Source: Thermoproteota archaeon
Lineage (GTDB): Archaea > Korarchaeota > Korarchaeia > Korarchaeales > JAOZGB01
NCBI GenBank assembly: GCA_037917685.1
Contig: JAVCBU010000003.1
Span: 96,001-160,000 of the forward strand
Direction: 5' to 3'
Length of the DNA stretch: 64,000 nucleotides
The notes beneath the pieces are model-generated. The model was not told where the DNA came from and did no database searches. It saw nothing but the letters and a program-made list of their open reading frames with translations. Every line of letters begins with the position of its first letter. Position 1 is the stretch's first letter. Below are positions 33,799 to 48,107 of this stretch, piece after piece. The translations under genes and the position numbers were made by a program.

Positions 33799-34989
33799 TT
33801 ACATTAACTCTACTGCTACGGCGTGTCCTTCGCCTCCGCCATCGCAGAGCGTTGCCAGACCCCTCTTCAAACCTCTGACCTTCAAAGCGTTTATCAGGGT
33901 GACAACTATTCTTGCTCCACTTGCCGCCAATGGGTGACCAATTGCAATTGCCCCCCCGTGGACGTTTAGCTTCTCGTAAGGTATTCCAAGCTGACTGGCA
34001 ACAATAATGGTTGCTAGTGCGAATGCCTCATTATGTTCGTATAGGTCAAAGTCTTCGATGCTCATGTTGAGGGTTTCAAGGAGCTTCCTCACAGCTGGTA
34101 TAGGAGATTCCACAAAGTTCTTTGGATGTAAACCTACACTCGCAAATCCCAGTATTCTAGCTATGGGCTTAAGCCCTAACTCCTCGGCACATGCCATGCT
34201 GGAAACTACAATTGCAGCTGCTCCATCGCTGAGCTGTGATGCGTTTGCGGCTGTGATTATCCCATCTTTTAGGAATACTGGTTTAAGCTTTGAAACCTTC
34301 TCCAAGCTCGTGTCAGGCCTGATCCCCTCGTCTCTTTCTACTGTGCGGCCATCAACCTCTACCGGCACGATCTCGTCCCTAAAATATCCTTCATTGGTTG
34401 CCTTTGCAGCTCTACGATGGCTCATAACAGCGTACCTGTCAGCCATTTCTCTTGTCACACCATGCTTCCTAGCTGTCCTCTCAGCTTCAACTGCTAACAG
34501 CTCTCCTGTAAACGGGTCTGTGAGCCCATCGTGAACCATTAAATCTACCACTTTCTCCCCTGTAAATGAATATTTAAGCCCCCACTTCCACTTTGCAGGT
34601 ATCATGAAGGGGGCGTTACTCATGCTTTCCATGCCTCCAGCGACAACTATGTTGCAGTCTCCAGCGAGCACAGATCTTGATGCAAGGTAGAGGGCCTTCA
34701 TTCCCGAACTGCATACAGTGTTAACTGTGAAAGCTGGTGTTTCAATCGGTATTCCTGCTAAGTGCGCTGTAAGCCTCGCCGGGTTCCCACCTAATCCTCC
34801 TTGAAGGCACGCGCCTACCACTACTTCACTAACCATTTCCGGATCTATGTCTGCCTTGGAGAGTGCACCTCTGATAGCTTCAGCTGCGAGTCTCGGGGCA
34901 GGTAGATGACTAAATACGCCTCCATACTTGCCAATCGGGGTTCTCGCTATTGATAATATTGCTACGTTTTCTGTGCGGATTGATGCCAT
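33799..34989 (-). CDS. Acetyl-CoA acyltransferase (thiolase)
   Basis: NTVCSSG, GGMESMS, NEAF, GHPLAASG and C-terminal LCDGGG motifs. Confidence 0.95.
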   Translation of the reverse strand: MASIRTENVAILSIARTPIGKYGGVFSHLPAPRLAAEAIRGALSKADIDPEMVSEVVVGACLQGGLGGNPARLTAHLAGIPIETPAFTVNTVCSSGMKALYLASRSVLAGDCNIVVAGGMESMSNAPFMIPAKWKWGLKYSFTGEKVVDLMVHDGLTDPFTGELLAVEAERTARKHGVTREMADRYAVMSHRRAAKATNEGYFRDEIVPVEVDGRTVERDEGIRPDTSLEKVSKLKPVFLKDGIITAANASQLSDGAAAIVVSSMACAEELGLKPIARILGFASVGLHPKNFVESPIPAVRKLLETLNMSIEDFDLYEHNEAFALATIIVASQLGIPYEKLNVHGGAIAIGHPLAASGARIVVTLINALKVRGLKRGLATLCDGGGEGHAVAVELM

Positions 34990-36677: not shown

Positions 36678-37316
36678 CTAGCCTACGATTTTAAGTAGTG
36701 TCAACACAGCCCTCCTGGCTCCGAGCTCCGCTAGCCAGTGGTCGAAAGCAGTGCCAGCTACGATCGCATCCCCCTCCACGGGTTTAAGGGACATGATTAA
36801 ATCGTATGATCTAGGATATTCCTCTCTGAGGCTCCAAGAGACCCCTGGAAGGCGGAGTACCCCATCCCGGAATATGATGGTTGTAGCGCCCTTTGCACCT
36901 GCGAGTAGTGCAGCGTCTCTCAGTTCGAGCCCGGTCCCAACATTGTCTGAAGCACCTCTAATTATGAAGACCACGTCGCAGTCTGAGACTGTCAGTTTCC
37001 CAAGATTGAAGCGGAAGGGACCCCTAACCCTACTCCTAATGGCCTTAAGAACCGAGATTCCCTTCTCCGTCAGGTTGCAGCCCTTCCTATCAGTCCTAAC
37101 GAGGTTAAGACGTGACGTGTTTCTGATTATGCTTCTTACACTTCCTTCTCCTAGCCTCAGCATTGCTGAGAGCTGCTTTCTACCCCTAGGCCCGTCCTTG
37201 AGAGTATCCAGGAAAGCCCACACATGCTCCAGCCTGTAGCTCGGTGTAGGCCCGCGGCCAAGCTTTAAAGCATTTGATAGGATTTTAAAGGCCTGTGTGG
37301 CATCCATAAGGCGCAC
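36678..37316 (-). CDS. HTH transcription regulator-like protein (DUF4443/DUF2111-like)
   Basis: GRKQLS..LRLGEGSVRS..G.NLTEKG HTH; C-terminal GLELRDAA..GA.GATTI. Confidence 0.75.
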   Translation of the reverse strand: MRLMDATQAFKILSNALKLGRGPTPSYRLEHVWAFLDTLKDGPRGRKQLSAMLRLGEGSVRSIIRNTSRLNLVRTDRKGCNLTEKGISVLKAIRSRVRGPFRFNLGKLTVSDCDVVFIIRGASDNVGTGLELRDAALLAGAKGATTIIFRDGVLRLPGVSWSLREEYPRSYDLIMSLKPVEGDAIVAGTAFDHWLAELGARRAVLTLLKIVG

Positions 37317-37325
37317 CAGTTAACT

Positions 37326-37904
37326 CTATAATAGTTTATATGTAGTGGATTTAAAGCTTGACTTAAGTTTGTTTACAAGATGGGAAGCTATGAAGAATAT
37401 AGTGACGTTTGAAAGTAGATGTATGGCTGTGAAAGGCAGTGCTGAGATGAGAGCTAGGATAGGTTTAACATGGAAAACAAGCATGAATGATATGTTTGTT
37501 AATAAGTCGTAGATTAGAGTGGCGACAGCTGCGAGGAGGCTTATCTCGATGGCAAATTCAACTCCCTCGTGGGAAATTCTTCTGCTTATGCAGCCTATAG
37601 CTGAATAGATGGTTTCAGATAGTGCGCAGGCTACCAGTATACCCACATTAAAGCCGTAGGGGTTGAATGTCCCGTATATGAGCCAGGAGATGCATGCTAC
37701 GATCGTCCCAGGCAAAAAGCCGTAGAGGTAGCCGGCAAGGAAAACAAGGAAGTCCAGAAGATTAACATTTGGTATTGAGACTAGTGCATAGCTTGAAGCG
37801 ATGCTTGCAGCTGTAAAAAGCGCTATAGCACATATCAGCCTTGCTTTAGGGTTTGGGAAGCGGTGATACTGAGGTGTCCTCGTAGTACCAGACAAGGATG
37901 TCAC
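37326..37904 (-). CDS. ECF transporter S component (CbrT-like; true start slightly downstream)
   Basis: ALFTAA, IPNV, G..YG..PG, HLLSN motifs; about 6 TM segments. Confidence 0.8.
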   Translation of the reverse strand: MTSLSGTTRTPQYHRFPNPKARLICAIALFTAASIASSYALVSIPNVNLLDFLVFLAGYLYGFLPGTIVACISWLIYGTFNPYGFNVGILVACALSETIYSAIGCISRRISHEGVEFAIEISLLAAVATLIYDLLTNISFMLVFHVKPILALISALPFTAIHLLSNVTIFFIASHLVNKLKSSFKSTTYKLL

Positions 37905-38274
37905 CGTCTGTAATCACATACCTGTCGGCGGCTACCGGCCCCTCATACCAGTCACCCATCCAGTACCACCACATCCAGTAGTAAGGATGTTCGCTGCAAA
38001 GGTCGTTAATGCAGTTTACGAAAGCTCCCATGCCTGGATATGATGTGTAGTTTACATCAGCAACTGCGCATGTAACGTCTAGGAGTGTAGAGCCTGCAGC
38101 TATCTTTGTCGAGTTGTGCCATTCTATAGGCCCGCCTTTCACCTTAAACCCTATTGAAACAGTTATAAATCCTTCCTCGCTTGTTCTAGCCTTCATATAG
38201 AAGTTAGCAGCGAGAGCCGATGCTACAATCGCCCACAAGAGGAGAACTAGACTTAAAGCCTTATATTTATCCAT
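37846..38274 (-). CDS. Membrane-anchored DUF4430 (transcobalamin C-terminal-like) protein
   Basis: N-terminal TM; GAFVNCIN..YWMWW..AADRY.I.DGD.L.W.Y pattern. Confidence 0.8.
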   Translation of the reverse strand: MDKYKALSLVLLLWAIVASALAANFYMKARTSEEGFITVSIGFKVKGGPIEWHNSTKIAAGSTLLDVTCAVADVNYTSYPGMGAFVNCINDLCSEHPYYWMWWYWMGDWYEGPVAADRYVITDGDILVWYYEDTSVSPLPKP

Positions 38275-38283
38275 ATGATCACC

Positions 38284-38304
38284 ATGGATGGATTATCCAT
38301 CCAT
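38284..38304. promoter_or_regulatory. Perfect inverted repeat ATGGATGGA-TTA-TCCATCCAT between the TATA box and start codon of the DUF4430 operon
   Basis: 9-3-9 palindrome; minus-strand TTTATA at 38309-38314 with a GAAA BRE-like element. Confidence 0.7.
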
Positions 38305-38489
38305 AAAATATAAAGGTTTCTAGGCCTCACCCACCAGCAAGATTCTAACAGTCAGTATGAAAGTTAAAATCCGAGAAGAGACCGAAAAAGCCCATTCTAC
38401 ATTCAAGACGTCTACAAGAATGCCGAGAGCATGGGAGATATAGAGTTTAAAACGCCTCTACAGGGGAAGAATCTAAACTATATTCAATA

Positions 38490-38801
38490 TGTGTCGTTAC
38501 CGAACTCGTTAAGGGATTAACATTAAAGGAAGCATGGACCAAGATAAGCTGGAAGCAAGTGTCAGACGAGCTAGGTGGACTTCCGCCTGTCAAAAGACAC
38601 TGTAGCGTGTTGGCCGTAGGCGCACTAAAGCGTGCCATCAGAAAGTATTATACTGAAATAAAAGGCTATAAACCCGAATGGCTTCCTTCAGATCTTACCC
38701 CAGACGAGAAACAGGCTCTAGAAGCGAAGGAGATGATAGACAGGTTGTATAGGAGGTTTAGGAATGGGAGCGAAAAAGATAGACTTGACAATACAGCCTG
38801 A
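38490..38801 (+). pseudogene. iscU: 5'-truncated iscU copy
   Basis: VTELVKGL..WTKISWKQVSDELGGLPPVKRHCS is near-identical to the C-terminal half of 31458..31994; the first two Cys motifs are missing. Confidence 0.9.
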
Positions 38802-38994
38802 GGGATGCGTAAATCCGCCAATTGTAAGGCTTACACGAGCTATTAAAGAGCTTAAACAGGGCGAAGAGATAGAAGTAATATACAAAGAAGACCTGATACC
38901 GCTAAAAACCCTTCAGCTCCTATCAAGAAAGTACAAGCTAATCCTAACCCAGATTTCACCTAATACATGTATTCTGAAGAGGGGGGATTCATGA
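38764..38994 (+). CDS. TusA/SirA-like sulfur-carrier protein, copy 2
   Basis: Paralog of 31957..32187 (58/76 identical by my count); EGCVNPP conserved. Confidence 0.7.
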   Translation: MGAKKIDLTIQPEGCVNPPIVRLTRAIKELKQGEEIEVIYKEDLIPLKTLQLLSRKYKLILTQISPNTCILKRGDS

Positions 38995-40214
38995 TAGACG
39001 TAGAAGCCGTTAGGAAAGACTTTCCAATACTTGAAAGAGAGATAAACGGTCAGAAAATAGTCTATTTCGATAATGCCGCATCCTCTCAGAAGCCGGTTCA
39101 AGTAGTGGAAAAGATGAGAGACTTCTACTATAACACGTACGCAAATGTGCATCGAGGTGTACATACACTCAGCCAGGAAGCATCCGAACAGTACGAAGAA
39201 GCCCACGCAATCATAGCATCACTTATAGGCGCCCGGAAGGATGAGATAGTCTTCACAATGGGGACAACAGACTCTTTAAATATGCTTGCCTACGGCCTTG
39301 AATCCACGTTGGCAGGAGGGGACGAGATAGTAACTACTGTTATGGAGCATCATAGTAACTATCTCCCATGGAAGTTTCTTGCAGAGCGGAAAAAGGCGAA
39401 ACTCAAGATTATAGATGTAGATGATGAGGGCAGACTAAACTATGCCCAGCTAGAAAACCTAATCTCGCCAAGGACGAAAATTGTTGCCGTATGTCATATG
39501 TCAAATGTAACTGGCTTCATTACTGATGTAGGAAAAATTGCTAGGATAGCCCATGAGACTGAAGCTTACGTCGTCGTTGACGGGGCACAGTCTGTTCCCC
39601 ATCTGCCTGTGAATGTTAAAGAGCTTGATATAGACTTCATGGCCTTCAGCGGCCACAAAATGCTGGGGCCTACGGGAATAGGCGTACTCTATGGAAAGAA
39701 AGATCTCCTCGAAGAACTAACTCCATACCGGTACGGTGGTGGAATGATAAGTAGGGTAACACTTTCAGAAGTCGAATTTCAAGATGTCCCATGGAGGCTT
39801 GAGGCTGGAACACCAAACATAGTTCAAGCAGTAGGCCTGGCGGAGGCGGTGAAATACCTCAAGAAGGTGGGAATGGAGAACATAGAGAGCCATGAGAAAC
39901 AGCTGGTTAAAAAGACCCTAACCCTAATTCAGGAGGAGCTTAAAGACAAGATAAAAATAGTTGGGCCTCAAAACCAGCTGGAACGTGGGGGCCTCGTGGC
40001 ATTTACAGTCAAAGGACTAGATCACCATACTGTAGCATCCCTACTAGACGCCTACGGTGTAATGGTTAGGAGCGGTAAACACTGCGCACATCCCCTTCAT
40101 GAAAGGCTGGGCCTAGAAGGAACCGTAAGGGCATCCTTCTACCTATATAACACGGAGCATGAAGTTGAAAGATTTATACAAGCATTAGCCGAAATAGTTG
40201 GTACAGTAGATTAG
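38991..40214 (+). CDS. sufS: SufS/CsdA class II cysteine desulfurase
   Basis: YFDNAASSQKP, EHHSN, DGAQ, SGHKM, EAGTP, RSGKHCA and VRASFYLYN motifs. Confidence 0.95.
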   Translation: MIDVEAVRKDFPILEREINGQKIVYFDNAASSQKPVQVVEKMRDFYYNTYANVHRGVHTLSQEASEQYEEAHAIIASLIGARKDEIVFTMGTTDSLNMLAYGLESTLAGGDEIVTTVMEHHSNYLPWKFLAERKKAKLKIIDVDDEGRLNYAQLENLISPRTKIVAVCHMSNVTGFITDVGKIARIAHETEAYVVVDGAQSVPHLPVNVKELDIDFMAFSGHKMLGPTGIGVLYGKKDLLEELTPYRYGGGMISRVTLSEVEFQDVPWRLEAGTPNIVQAVGLAEAVKYLKKVGMENIESHEKQLVKKTLTLIQEELKDKIKIVGPQNQLERGGLVAFTVKGLDHHTVASLLDAYGVMVRSGKHCAHPLHERLGLEGTVRASFYLYNTEHEVERFIQALAEIVGTVD

Positions 40215-47802: not shown

Positions 47803-47932
47803 GGAGGCTAGGCGGCCATAGCAGCCGGGGATACGCCCGTACCCATTCCGAACACGGAAGCTAAGCCCGGCTGCGTTCCACGGAGTACTGCGGTCCGCAA
47901 GGACGCGGGAAACGTGGAAGCCGCTAACCTCC
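47803..47932 (+). rRNA. rrf: 5S rRNA (stand-alone; exact ends approximate)
   Basis: GCGGCCATAGC..CCCGTACCCATTCCGAACACGGAAGCTAAGCC..AGTACTG..GGGAAAC..GCCGC with a pairing terminal stem; TTTAAA box upstream and T-tract downstream. Confidence 0.95.
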
Positions 47933-47986
47933 ACTCTTTTAGTTTGTCTTCTTGACCTTACTCTTTTAGTTTGTCTTCTTGGCCTT
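47933..47986 (+). terminator. T-rich terminator of 5S rRNA, duplicated as a 27-bp tandem repeat
   Basis: ACTCTTTTAGTTTGTCTTCTTG(A/G)CCTT at 47933-47959 and 47960-47986. Confidence 0.7.
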
Positions 47987-48107
47987 AATCATGTCTTTAA
48001 ATCCATTTGATGGTGACGTCATAGTAGCTGGTACAGCCGAACAATATCTACATGCAGAGATGGGCGCCAGAAAGGCTGTTCTAACACTTCTAGGTGTTCA
48101 AGAATAA
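47985..48107 (+). pseudogene. 3' remnant of a paralog of the DUF4443-like regulator
   Basis: LIMSLNPFDGDVIVAGTAEQYLHAEMGARKAVLTLLGVQE* aligns with LIMSLKPVEGDAIVAGTAFDHWLAELGARRAVLTLLKIVG* of 36678..37316. Confidence 0.85.

Follow-up and report, generated by a model that had tools for sequence, protein, structure and literature searches.

A candidate corrinoid-responsive regulator of the DUF4443 family and its near-invariant palindrome at an archaeal B12 uptake operon

How can an archaeon adjust the uptake of vitamin B12 when the leader of its uptake operon is too short for a riboswitch? This question is raised by a three-gene operon in a stretch of 64,000 nucleotides (positions 96,001 to 160,000 of contig JAVCBU010000003.1, assembly GCA_037917685.1), hereafter called the window, from a Thermoproteota archaeon of the Korarchaeales. 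The operon consists of three co-directional open reading frames (ORFs) on the minus strand that encode a DUF4430 protein, a CbrT-like S component of an energy-coupling factor (ECF) transporter, and a regulator in which a winged helix-turn-helix (wHTH) domain is followed by a DUF4443 domain. To our knowledge, it has been unclear for about two decades how archaea regulate their B12 genes in the absence of riboswitches. The original prediction, made from the letters of the window, held that the DUF4443 protein is a ligand-responsive repressor that replaces the riboswitch. The comparative data presented here make it probable that the wHTH-DUF4443 protein is a corrinoid-responsive transcription factor and that a palindrome in the operon promoter is its operator; our confidence is higher for the link between operator, regulator and B12 regulon, and lower for a direct binding of corrinoids and for activation.

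A palindrome in the promoter of a three-gene operon

The operon and its promoter comprise the following features, given in the direction of transcription.

38307..38314, minus strand: TATA box TTTATATT of the operon promoter, read from the sequence
38284..38304, no strand assigned: candidate operator, the perfect 9-3-9 palindrome ATGGATGGA-TTA-TCCATCCAT, between TATA box and start codon
38278..38283, minus strand: Shine-Dalgarno-like GGTGAT, 3 nt 5' of the ATG, presumed from its sequence to function as such
38274..37846, minus strand: DUF4430 protein gene, 142 amino acids; Pfam PF14478 at 28.5 bits (cut-off 23.8)
37904..37326, minus strand: ECF-type S component gene, 192 amino acids; polytopic membrane protein with about six transmembrane segments
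37327..37334, minus strand: possible internal TATA-like box CTATTATA, about 24 nt 5' of the regulator ATG, read from the sequence
37316..36678, minus strand: regulator gene, 212 amino acids; PH0730-like N-terminal wHTH and C-terminal DUF4443

Read along the minus strand, the promoter runs from TTTATATT (38314-38307) through tt, ATGGATGGATAATCCATCCAT (38304-38284), GGTGAT and cat to the ATG at 38274. The palindrome begins 2-4 nt past the TATA box (the value varies with the limits drawn for the box) and ends 9 nt before the start codon, so that its position just after the TATA box stands as first noted, while the single value of 4 bp given for the spacing becomes a range. Within it, a conserved core, GGATGGATnATCCATCC (38286-38302), forms the unit that is kept in relatives, an 8-1-8 arrangement, and GGTGAT or AGGTG is found at the equivalent position in many of these. 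Going by the usual archaeal distance of about 26 nt between TATA box and transcription start, transcription would be expected to begin at about position 38284, the last base of the palindrome, which thus covers the expected start as had been proposed. The distance from TATA box to ATG is about 33 nt, and there is therefore no room for a cobalamin riboswitch of about 190 nt; an Rfam scan of the window revealed no riboswitch, its single match being a 5S rRNA. The claim that the leader is too short for such an element thus holds.

When up to three mismatches are allowed, the palindrome has this one match in the window, against an expectation of 0.01 derived from 100 shuffles. In the 1.81-Mb genome the sole other match is a site with three mismatches on another contig, and a scan of the whole genome with up to four mismatches gave nothing else convincing.

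The tight packing of the three genes is confirmed by ORF and Pfam analysis. The S component may start at GTG 37904 or TTG 37895, and its ORF accordingly shares 50-59 nt with the 3' end of the DUF4430 gene. The most likely start codon of the regulator is ATG 37307, 18 nt past the stop codon of the S component; the public gene call gives it a length of 209 amino acids. The internal box CTATTATA, to judge from its position, may allow a basal, leaderless expression of the regulator that is independent of the operator.

Operator conservation and the genes that carry the site

We collected the corresponding loci of relatives by protein similarity, without use of the motif. A homolog of the regulator, 29-40% identical, is present in 33 of 41 related genomes, and the DUF4430 gene adjoins the regulator gene in 25 of 29 loci (of the other four, two are cases of a contig end). 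In 25 of these 25 two-gene loci, GGATGGATnATCCATCC is located between a TATA-like box and the start of the DUF4430 gene, as a perfect copy in 20, with one mismatch in four and with two mismatches in one; conservation of the palindrome upstream of DUF4443-linked operons, the check by which the original prediction proposed to be judged, was thus found throughout. An AT-rich TATA-like box ends 0-9 nt 5' of the palindrome in all 25 DUF4430 promoters. The core carries 1.87 bits of information per column, its flanks 0.73 and 0.40, and this near-invariance of the operator contrasts with the proteins of these loci, which are merely 32-58% identical. The regulator gene is divergent from the DUF4430 gene in the relatives; the co-directional order described at first is peculiar to the genome of the window. 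The link between the two genes has therefore outlived a rearrangement.

Across the 41 related genomes, regulator and site (with at most one mismatch) are distributed as follows; since these genomes are not independent of each other, the table describes a pattern and is not a statistic.

Regulator found and site found: 29 genomes
Regulator found, site not found: 4 genomes
Regulator not found, site found: 2 genomes (G025, G029)
Neither regulator nor site found: 6 genomes

One of the two genomes with a site only is 72% complete, and the one-mismatch site of the other is located inside an ORF. A reversed pattern, used as a control, matched in five of the 41 genomes, once in each. PF14544, the DUF4443 family, is present in nine of nine distinct further genomes reached via named site-bearing loci (ten handles, G049 covering the same places as G026), and regulator gene and site adjoin each other again in metagenome-assembled genomes (MAGs) from distant lineages labeled Bathyarchaeia, Nitrososphaeria and Thaumarchaeota (L094, L100, L106, L115, L134, L143, L154). 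A covariance model of the cobalamin riboswitch (RF00174) found no match in any of the 41 related genomes and matched in seven of 14 control genomes.

Second or third copies of the site are common in the relatives and occur at B12-linked genes: in front of nrdD-nrdG in 11 genomes, of a pair encoding RACo and a corrinoid protein, of a corrinoid-protein gene with an MtaA-like gene, of MtaB, of a second DUF4430-S operon and, in three genomes, of lone S-like genes. One-mismatch sites inside ORFs (L058, L066, L067, L068) were taken as chance matches. To widen the view, an exact-pattern scan was run over one genome per prokaryotic species; it gave at least 119 stretches, 80 of which were examined with full flanks. 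Among these 80, 63 are archaeal by their record titles or flanking genes (L126 is unlabeled and has mcrB), and they carry the labels Methanomethylicia/Methanosuratincola, Korarchaeum, Bathyarchaeia, Nitrososphaeria/Thaumarchaeota, 'Aigarchaeota' genera, Methanomassiliicoccales and Thermoplasmata, along with one MAG labeled Halobacteria. We sorted the 63 listed archaeal sites by reading the flanking ORFs; several loci come from close relatives and do not count as independent.

Clearly B12-linked neighbors: 39 of 63
ECF A-A-T module: 3 of 63
Secreted alpha/alpha-toroid plus PKD protein: 4 of 63
mcrB-mcrD, about 115 nt downstream (Methanomassiliicoccales): 5 of 63
Unknown, unrelated or other, or contig edge: 12 of 63

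The B12-linked class comprises BtuF-like plus FecCD genes, S component plus DUF4430 genes, nrdD, corrinoid and Mta genes, CobT-like plus CbiZ genes and the DUF4443 gene itself. The remaining 17 of the 80 listed stretches are bacterial and were taken as chance matches that can serve as a control set: among the site-adjoining ORFs of 15 of these bacterial loci, none of 24 is B12-related. The association of DUF4443 with B12 and ECF genes on which the original prediction relied is thus met with in the DUF4430 neighbor of 25 of 29 loci and in the presence of the palindrome at importers, salvage genes, corrinoid proteins and nrdD. The original prediction dealt with this operon, which in the genome of the window is the only one with a convincing site; elsewhere the regulon is much wider, and some of its sites are placed as if for activation.

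Three groups of sites deserve separate mention. In Methanomassiliicoccales-type loci (L107, L112, L118, L126, L145), the palindrome is located 114-116 nt upstream of mcrB, with a TATA box (aagcTTATAT) 8-9 nt beyond it; the geometry of this promoter suggests that the operon for methyl-coenzyme M reductase is activated in a B12-dependent manner. In Nitrososphaeria-type MAGs (L105:1285-1998, minus strand; L124:1285-1998, minus strand; L168:2019-2738, plus strand), the site lies 0-3 nt upstream of a gene for a polytopic membrane protein of 237-239 amino acids that is divergent from an ECF A-A-T module; Pfam and PDB searches gave no match for this protein, which may be an undescribed corrinoid S component. 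In Bathyarchaeia MAGs (L102:482-1996, minus strand; L139:2024-3538, plus strand; L167:2027-3538, plus strand; L161:1-1818, minus strand), the site precedes genes for proteins of about 500 amino acids with an alpha/alpha-toroid region (SQHop_cyclase/Prenyltrans-like) and a PKD domain, a composition that recalls the alpha domain of transcobalamin; PKD plus DUF4430 proteins take their place in L132 and L158.

The position of the site relative to the promoter elements follows two patterns. In archaeal promoters the TATA box is centered near position -26 with the B recognition element (BRE) just upstream of it, and a factor bound between TATA box and transcription start blocks recruitment of the polymerase; activation is possible from a position immediately 5' of the BRE. 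In the uptake, salvage and nrdD promoters of all lineages examined, the interval between the end of the TATA box and the site is 0-9 nt, and that between the site and the start codon is 0-41 nt; a site after the TATA box, as in the window, is by its sequence context in the position of a repressor. The order is reversed, with the site 8-9 nt in front of the TATA box, at the five mcrB promoters, at a UroD-like/corrinoid operon and at a corrinoid-protein gene; judged by the same geometry, this may be the position of an activator.

The sites at nrdD provide a clue to the effector. The gene is present in 26 of the 41 related genomes, 16 of which also encode a PF02867 protein; two such proteins that were checked reach 709 and 740 bits with TIGR02504, the model for NrdJ. 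Of the 16 genomes with both, 11 have the site in front of nrdD, two have an nrdD gene that is truncated at a contig end and unassessable, and three are without the site, so that 11 of 14 assessable genomes carry it. It was found at nrdD in none of the ten genomes in which PF02867 was not found, and in three further distinct genomes with the site at nrdD, PF02867 is present in all three. The ten include the genome of the window (95% complete), in which nrdDG lies on another contig with no site found upstream of nrdD and no class I or II ribonucleotide reductase was found. An isozyme rule of this kind for ribonucleotide reductases is reportedly contained in the abstract of the study by Rodionov et al. 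(J Biol Chem) of 2003. Bacterial B12 riboswitches repress the B12-independent isozyme where a B12-dependent one exists, as with metE and metH (PMC9600662). A B12 sensor predicts the nrdD pattern, whereas one that responds to oxygen, nucleotides or cobalt does not. We also considered whether the nrdD sites could belong to a DtxR-like or NrdR-like regulator and rejected this, since genes for corrinoid import and salvage are preceded by the palindrome too.

Two observations concern nrdD genes without the site. Well upstream of nrdD in L084 (G017) there is a differently spaced palindrome, TTGGAT-ATATA-ATCCAA, which we did not count as a site; the site-less nrdD genes of genus g6 (L085, L086, L087) have another conserved block in common in their upstream regions, GGAAAAGTTATTAC..CGTAtAtCCTTCTTAT, that may be a further regulatory element.

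The proteins of the operon

The regulator matches PF14544 (DUF4443) over residues 111-207 with 72.0 bits (cut-off 27) and the wHTH family PF22167 (PH0730-like_N) with 45.6 bits (cut-off 30.2). It falls below the threshold for the CggR/SorC family (CggR_N 27.4 bits, cut-off 30), and no SorC domain was matched. Its AlphaFold model has a predicted local distance difference test (pLDDT) value of 95.4, and it matches PH0730 of Pyrococcus horikoshii (PDB 2p8t, a structural genomics entry), which has the same two-domain architecture and fold (sequence E 8.7e-18; Foldseek E 4.7e-11; Z 20.5, root mean square deviation (rmsd) 2.7 A over 176 residues). The wHTH of the model superposes on the operator DNA-bound domain of CggR with an rmsd of 1.2 A over 68 columns. 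Across 38 aligned homologs, which span several phyla, G45 and R46 do not vary, and G56, E57, G58 and R61 of the wHTH hardly do, which parallels, as far as sequences can tell, the near-invariance of the operator. H31, R133, D134, A136, G140, G143, A144, P157, G182 and D183 are likewise invariant or nearly invariant in the same alignment and represent candidates for a ligand pocket.

For the DUF4443 domain itself, Foldseek gave nothing beyond a weak and partial resemblance to the insertion domain of aspartyl-tRNA synthetase (AspRS) from bacteria. A search of the ESM Atlas with the C-terminal domain (residues 100-212, clusters of PF14544 skipped) gave no usable match, and in a wide VIA-align search with the whole regulator model, wHTH matches filled the list beyond 2p8t, so that the DUF4443 domain was barely probed on its own. 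PF14544 is also present in Sulfolobus acidocaldarius.

In Thermoplasmatota, DUF4443 proteins come in a short and a long form. The gene of the short paralog (L213-L216; Methanomassiliicoccales and a Thermoplasmata MAG) starts a few bases past the stop codon of another gene, which in L213 encodes an archaeal S-adenosylmethionine (SAM) synthetase (PF01941) and which, from a similar C-terminal sequence, probably does so in L214-L216 as well; the palindrome was not found at these four loci. The long paralog of Methanomassiliicoccales (L218:1186, L219:2087, L220:1185) combines wHTH, DUF4443 and DUF2111 in 321-340 amino acids, and just before its own start it has a variant palindrome, GGATGGAT-TATAT-ATCCATCC, with the same half-sites and a 5-nt spacer.

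The DUF4430 protein shows a helix at residues 3-30 followed by a beta domain in its AlphaFold model (pLDDT 91.5, from an alignment of 36 sequences). The 15 top-ranking Foldseek matches are without exception haptocorrin, transcobalamin or intrinsic factor; among them is the isolated B12-bound beta domain 5np4, with which the model aligns at a TMt of 0.73 and an rmsd of 2.8 A over 103 columns. The resemblance to the B12-binding domain of transcobalamin that the original prediction cited for this family is thereby corroborated at the level of fold. The top PDB match of the sequence profile is transcobalamin-1 (E 0.044). We predict from the model that the DUF4430 protein is a membrane-anchored extracellular protein for the capture of corrinoids.

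The S component on its own remains below the Pfam cut-offs (ECF-ribofla_trS 21.8 against 26.7 bits; ECF_trnsprt 20.6 against 30.7) and has no match in NCBIfam, and several of its homologs score above a Pfam cut-off (e.g., L075, L097 and L146). A profile of 21 homologs matches 6fnp_A at E 2.4e-11 over profile positions 7-181 of 188, followed among PDB entries by 4hzu_S (1.4e-5) and RibU (2e-4). Entry 6FNP is the ECF-CbrT B12 transporter (PMC5997447); we took chain A as CbrT from its length (182 amino acids) and its label 'membrane protein'. A CbrT-type ECF component beside the DUF4430 gene, as originally proposed, is therefore seen at the level of profiles. The genome of the window encodes six CbiQ-type T components.

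Searches of the same genome (95% complete) revealed no CbiC, no CobS and no binding protein of the BtuF type, and there are four proteins with a B12-binding domain, one of them stand-alone and three of them B12-binding radical SAM enzymes. Because these proteins for synthesis and import were not found and B12-binding proteins are present, the organism looks like a corrinoid auxotroph in which this operon is the only recognizable importer, and such an auxotroph fits a regulon of one site.

Other genes of the window add a few observations. Across a spacer of 284 nt, three ORFs on the plus strand (38559-40214) are divergent from the operon: a short one that matches the C-terminal end of NifU_N only, a weakly TusA-like one, and a class-V aminotransferase that resembles cysteine desulfurases (487.8 bits). 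Downstream of the operon there are genes for an acyl-CoA dehydrogenase and for a 396-amino acid protein (33799-34989) that may be thiolase-like. Directly 3' of the 5S rRNA gene (47808-47929, plus strand; Rfam 85.2 bits), a 42-amino acid ORF (47979-48107, plus strand) shows about 65% identity to the final 38 residues of the regulator and, from this likeness, looks like the C-terminal remnant of a second DUF4443 gene.

Mechanism, competing readings and significance

If the wHTH-DUF4443 protein is indeed a corrinoid-responsive transcription factor, a dimer with corrinoid in its DUF4443 domains would occupy GGATGGATnATCCATCC directly downstream of the TATA box and would bar RNA polymerase from the promoter of the DUF4430/S/regulator operon. 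When B12 is sufficient, synthesis of the capture protein, of the ECF substrate subunit and of the regulator would all stop, and the regulator, encoded at the end of the operon that it would control, would be subject to negative autoregulation. Sites located 8-9 nt upstream of a TATA box would probably serve to activate B12-dependent pathways. With uptake and nrdD repressed and B12-dependent pathways activated, it must be the corrinoid-bound form that would bind DNA. In the organism studied here the regulon would consist of one self-regulated operon, and in other archaea the same pair of protein and site would govern a whole B12 regulon. The replacement of a riboswitch by a DUF4443-like, ligand-responsive repressor, as the original prediction had it, draws support from the conservation of the operator, from its links to B12 genes and from the lack of RF00174 matches in all 41 related genomes, while the binding of DNA and of corrinoids by the protein is what we infer. 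A bolder version, in which DUF4443 proteins are near-universal B12 sensors of archaea that represent a new corrinoid-binding fold, read a near-invariant operator in several archaeal phyla and act both as repressors and as activators, including at mcr, is a tentative one that we are slightly more inclined to doubt than to accept.

Several findings weigh against the corrinoid-sensor explanation, and one of them bears on its central element. The DUF4443 domain has no detectable likeness to known B12-binding domains, which is the main gap in the argument, and its sole relative in the PDB, 2p8t, is titled a hypothetical protein. This leaves some room for an effector other than a corrinoid (cobalt, SAM or methionine, or a nucleotide) or for a separate B12-binding partner acting through the same operator and regulator, an alternative that we regard as unlikely and yet as the most serious one. 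It could point to the paralog encoded directly after an archaeal SAM synthetase gene, and the regulation of nrdD, if viewed alone, could reflect nucleotide or oxygen status. Indeed, Thermoplasmatota have two DUF4443 paralogs, and because these differ in their neighbors and in the spacing of the palindrome, effector and site may differ within the family, so that not all of its members need sense B12. However, the regulon is specific for corrinoids (BtuF/FecCD, the CbrT-like S component with its binder, CbiZ plus CobT, corrinoid proteins, RACo) and is not made up of cobalt, methionine or nucleotide genes, and a sensor of oxygen or deoxynucleotides would not explain why the site is found at nrdD only together with NrdJ. 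The rule has its exceptions, since G017, G038 and G039 possess nrdD, NrdJ and the regulator and are without a canonical site at nrdD; moreover, 12 of the 63 listed archaeal sites have no recognizable B12 gene nearby, the species-wide scan was read with full flanks for 80 of at least 119 stretches, and the counts overstate the statistical support, the related genomes not being independent.

The palindrome might also be a genuine operator of the B12 regulon that is read by another transcription factor, with DUF4443 merely a frequent neighbor. The pairing of protein and palindrome is our reading of sequence data; two genomes (G025, G029) have the site without a detected regulator, no canonical site was found in four regulator-bearing genomes (G015, G037, G038, G039), and many genomes have the majority of their sites at a great distance from the regulator gene. 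We nevertheless consider another reader very improbable: both site-only genomes are weak cases, the co-occurrence in relatives and in the nine further genomes is consistent, the two elements adjoin each other in most of the relatives' loci and again in distant lineages, and the regulator possesses a wHTH that superposes on the DNA-bound domain of CggR and whose residues, like the operator, hardly vary across phyla. Hardly any weight can be given to the view that the palindrome acts as RNA (a 5' leader hairpin, terminator or attenuator) or is a chance or mobile repeat. The 9-3-9 arrangement could form a hairpin close to the ribosome-binding site, but the sequence itself and not just its pairing is invariant across phyla, compensatory changes are absent, and the conserved 8-1-8 unit would leave a loop of one nucleotide. 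Furthermore, the palindrome abuts the TATA box and should thus lie mostly upstream of the transcription start, and wherever it is placed between divergent genes or 5' of a TATA box it cannot be part of the mRNA. The low number expected by chance in the window speaks against a fortuitous match, and the single copy in this genome, with no repeat family, against a mobile repeat. The preferred explanation therefore remains that of a corrinoid-responsive regulator and its operator.

This putative regulator can be compared with several known systems. Bacterial cobalamin riboswitch regulons (RF00174) share its gene content and logic, in that the cofactor shuts off uptake and salvage and, conditionally, B12-independent isozymes; they differ in that here a DNA palindrome in the promoter, presumably read by a protein, takes the place of a structured leader, and in that part of the sites occupy positions suited to activation, a mode of control that this riboswitch class does not provide. 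By analogy, the regulator would be a ligand-responsive wHTH protein in control of a vitamin regulon and thus a functional counterpart of the bacterial B12 riboswitch regulon. With ThiR, a comparable regulator of thiamine genes is known from archaea. RbkR, the archaeal regulator of riboflavin genes, is a wHTH protein with a riboflavin kinase sensor domain and the effectors CTP and FMN (PMC5397151). It likewise replaces a vitamin riboswitch and controls uptake transporters and often its own gene via palindromic operators; those operators vary by lineage, whereas the site described here is near-invariant across phyla and would be read by a protein with a DUF4443 sensor and, as we infer, a corrinoid effector. 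CggR/SorC repressors have a similar N-terminal wHTH, in contrast to which the C-terminal part is DUF4443 here and not a SorC sugar-phosphate-binding domain, and they are about 340 amino acids long as compared with 209-212 for the regulator. ECF-CbrT was solved without an extracellular binder (PMC5997447), whereas a membrane-anchored DUF4430 protein is co-encoded here; on sequence evidence, the pairing of DUF4430 protein and S component resembles an arrangement with a substrate-capture protein.

For the cis-element there may be a precedent. Rodionov, Vitreschak, Mironov and Gelfand are said to have described in 2003 (J Biol Chem) a 'CBL-box' as the signal of a hypothetical archaeal B12 regulator to which no protein was assigned. 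It, too, is an archaeal DNA signal upstream of B12 genes that was proposed as a substitute for riboswitches, and the element may thus already be in print under this name. What differs here is that DUF4443 is proposed as the reader and that the regulon extends to nrdD, corrinoid methyltransferases and mcr. Our literature search found no paper on DUF4443 and none on an archaeal B12-responsive transcription factor, and the literature examined gives no function, DNA site or ligand for PH0730. The latter is listed merely as a wHTH family in a table of transcription factor families (PMC6316755). As far as our searches go, the assignment of DUF4443, the archaeal nrdD/NrdJ rule, the activator-type sites and the link to mcr are new.

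The locus provides testable candidates for the protein (DUF4443, with the solved homolog 2p8t), for its binding site (GGATGGATnATCCATCC) and for its regulon. If the explanation is correct, three families would gain a function, namely DUF4443 as regulator, the archaeal DUF4430 protein as capture protein, and a divergent CbrT-like S component; the pair of operator and regulator might even serve as a thermostable B12 biosensor. B12 auxotrophy and cross-feeding of uncultured archaea would become readable from sequence, with the motif as a flag for genes of corrinoid import and salvage. In the bolder version, corrinoid uptake and salvage would be repressed along with the B12-independent reductase, and corrinoid-dependent methyl transfer and the mcr operon of Methanomassiliicoccales would be activated. 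There is a hint in these data that B12 supply controls methyl-reducing methanogenesis, and if true, the formation of methane from methyl compounds would be gated by the availability of B12.

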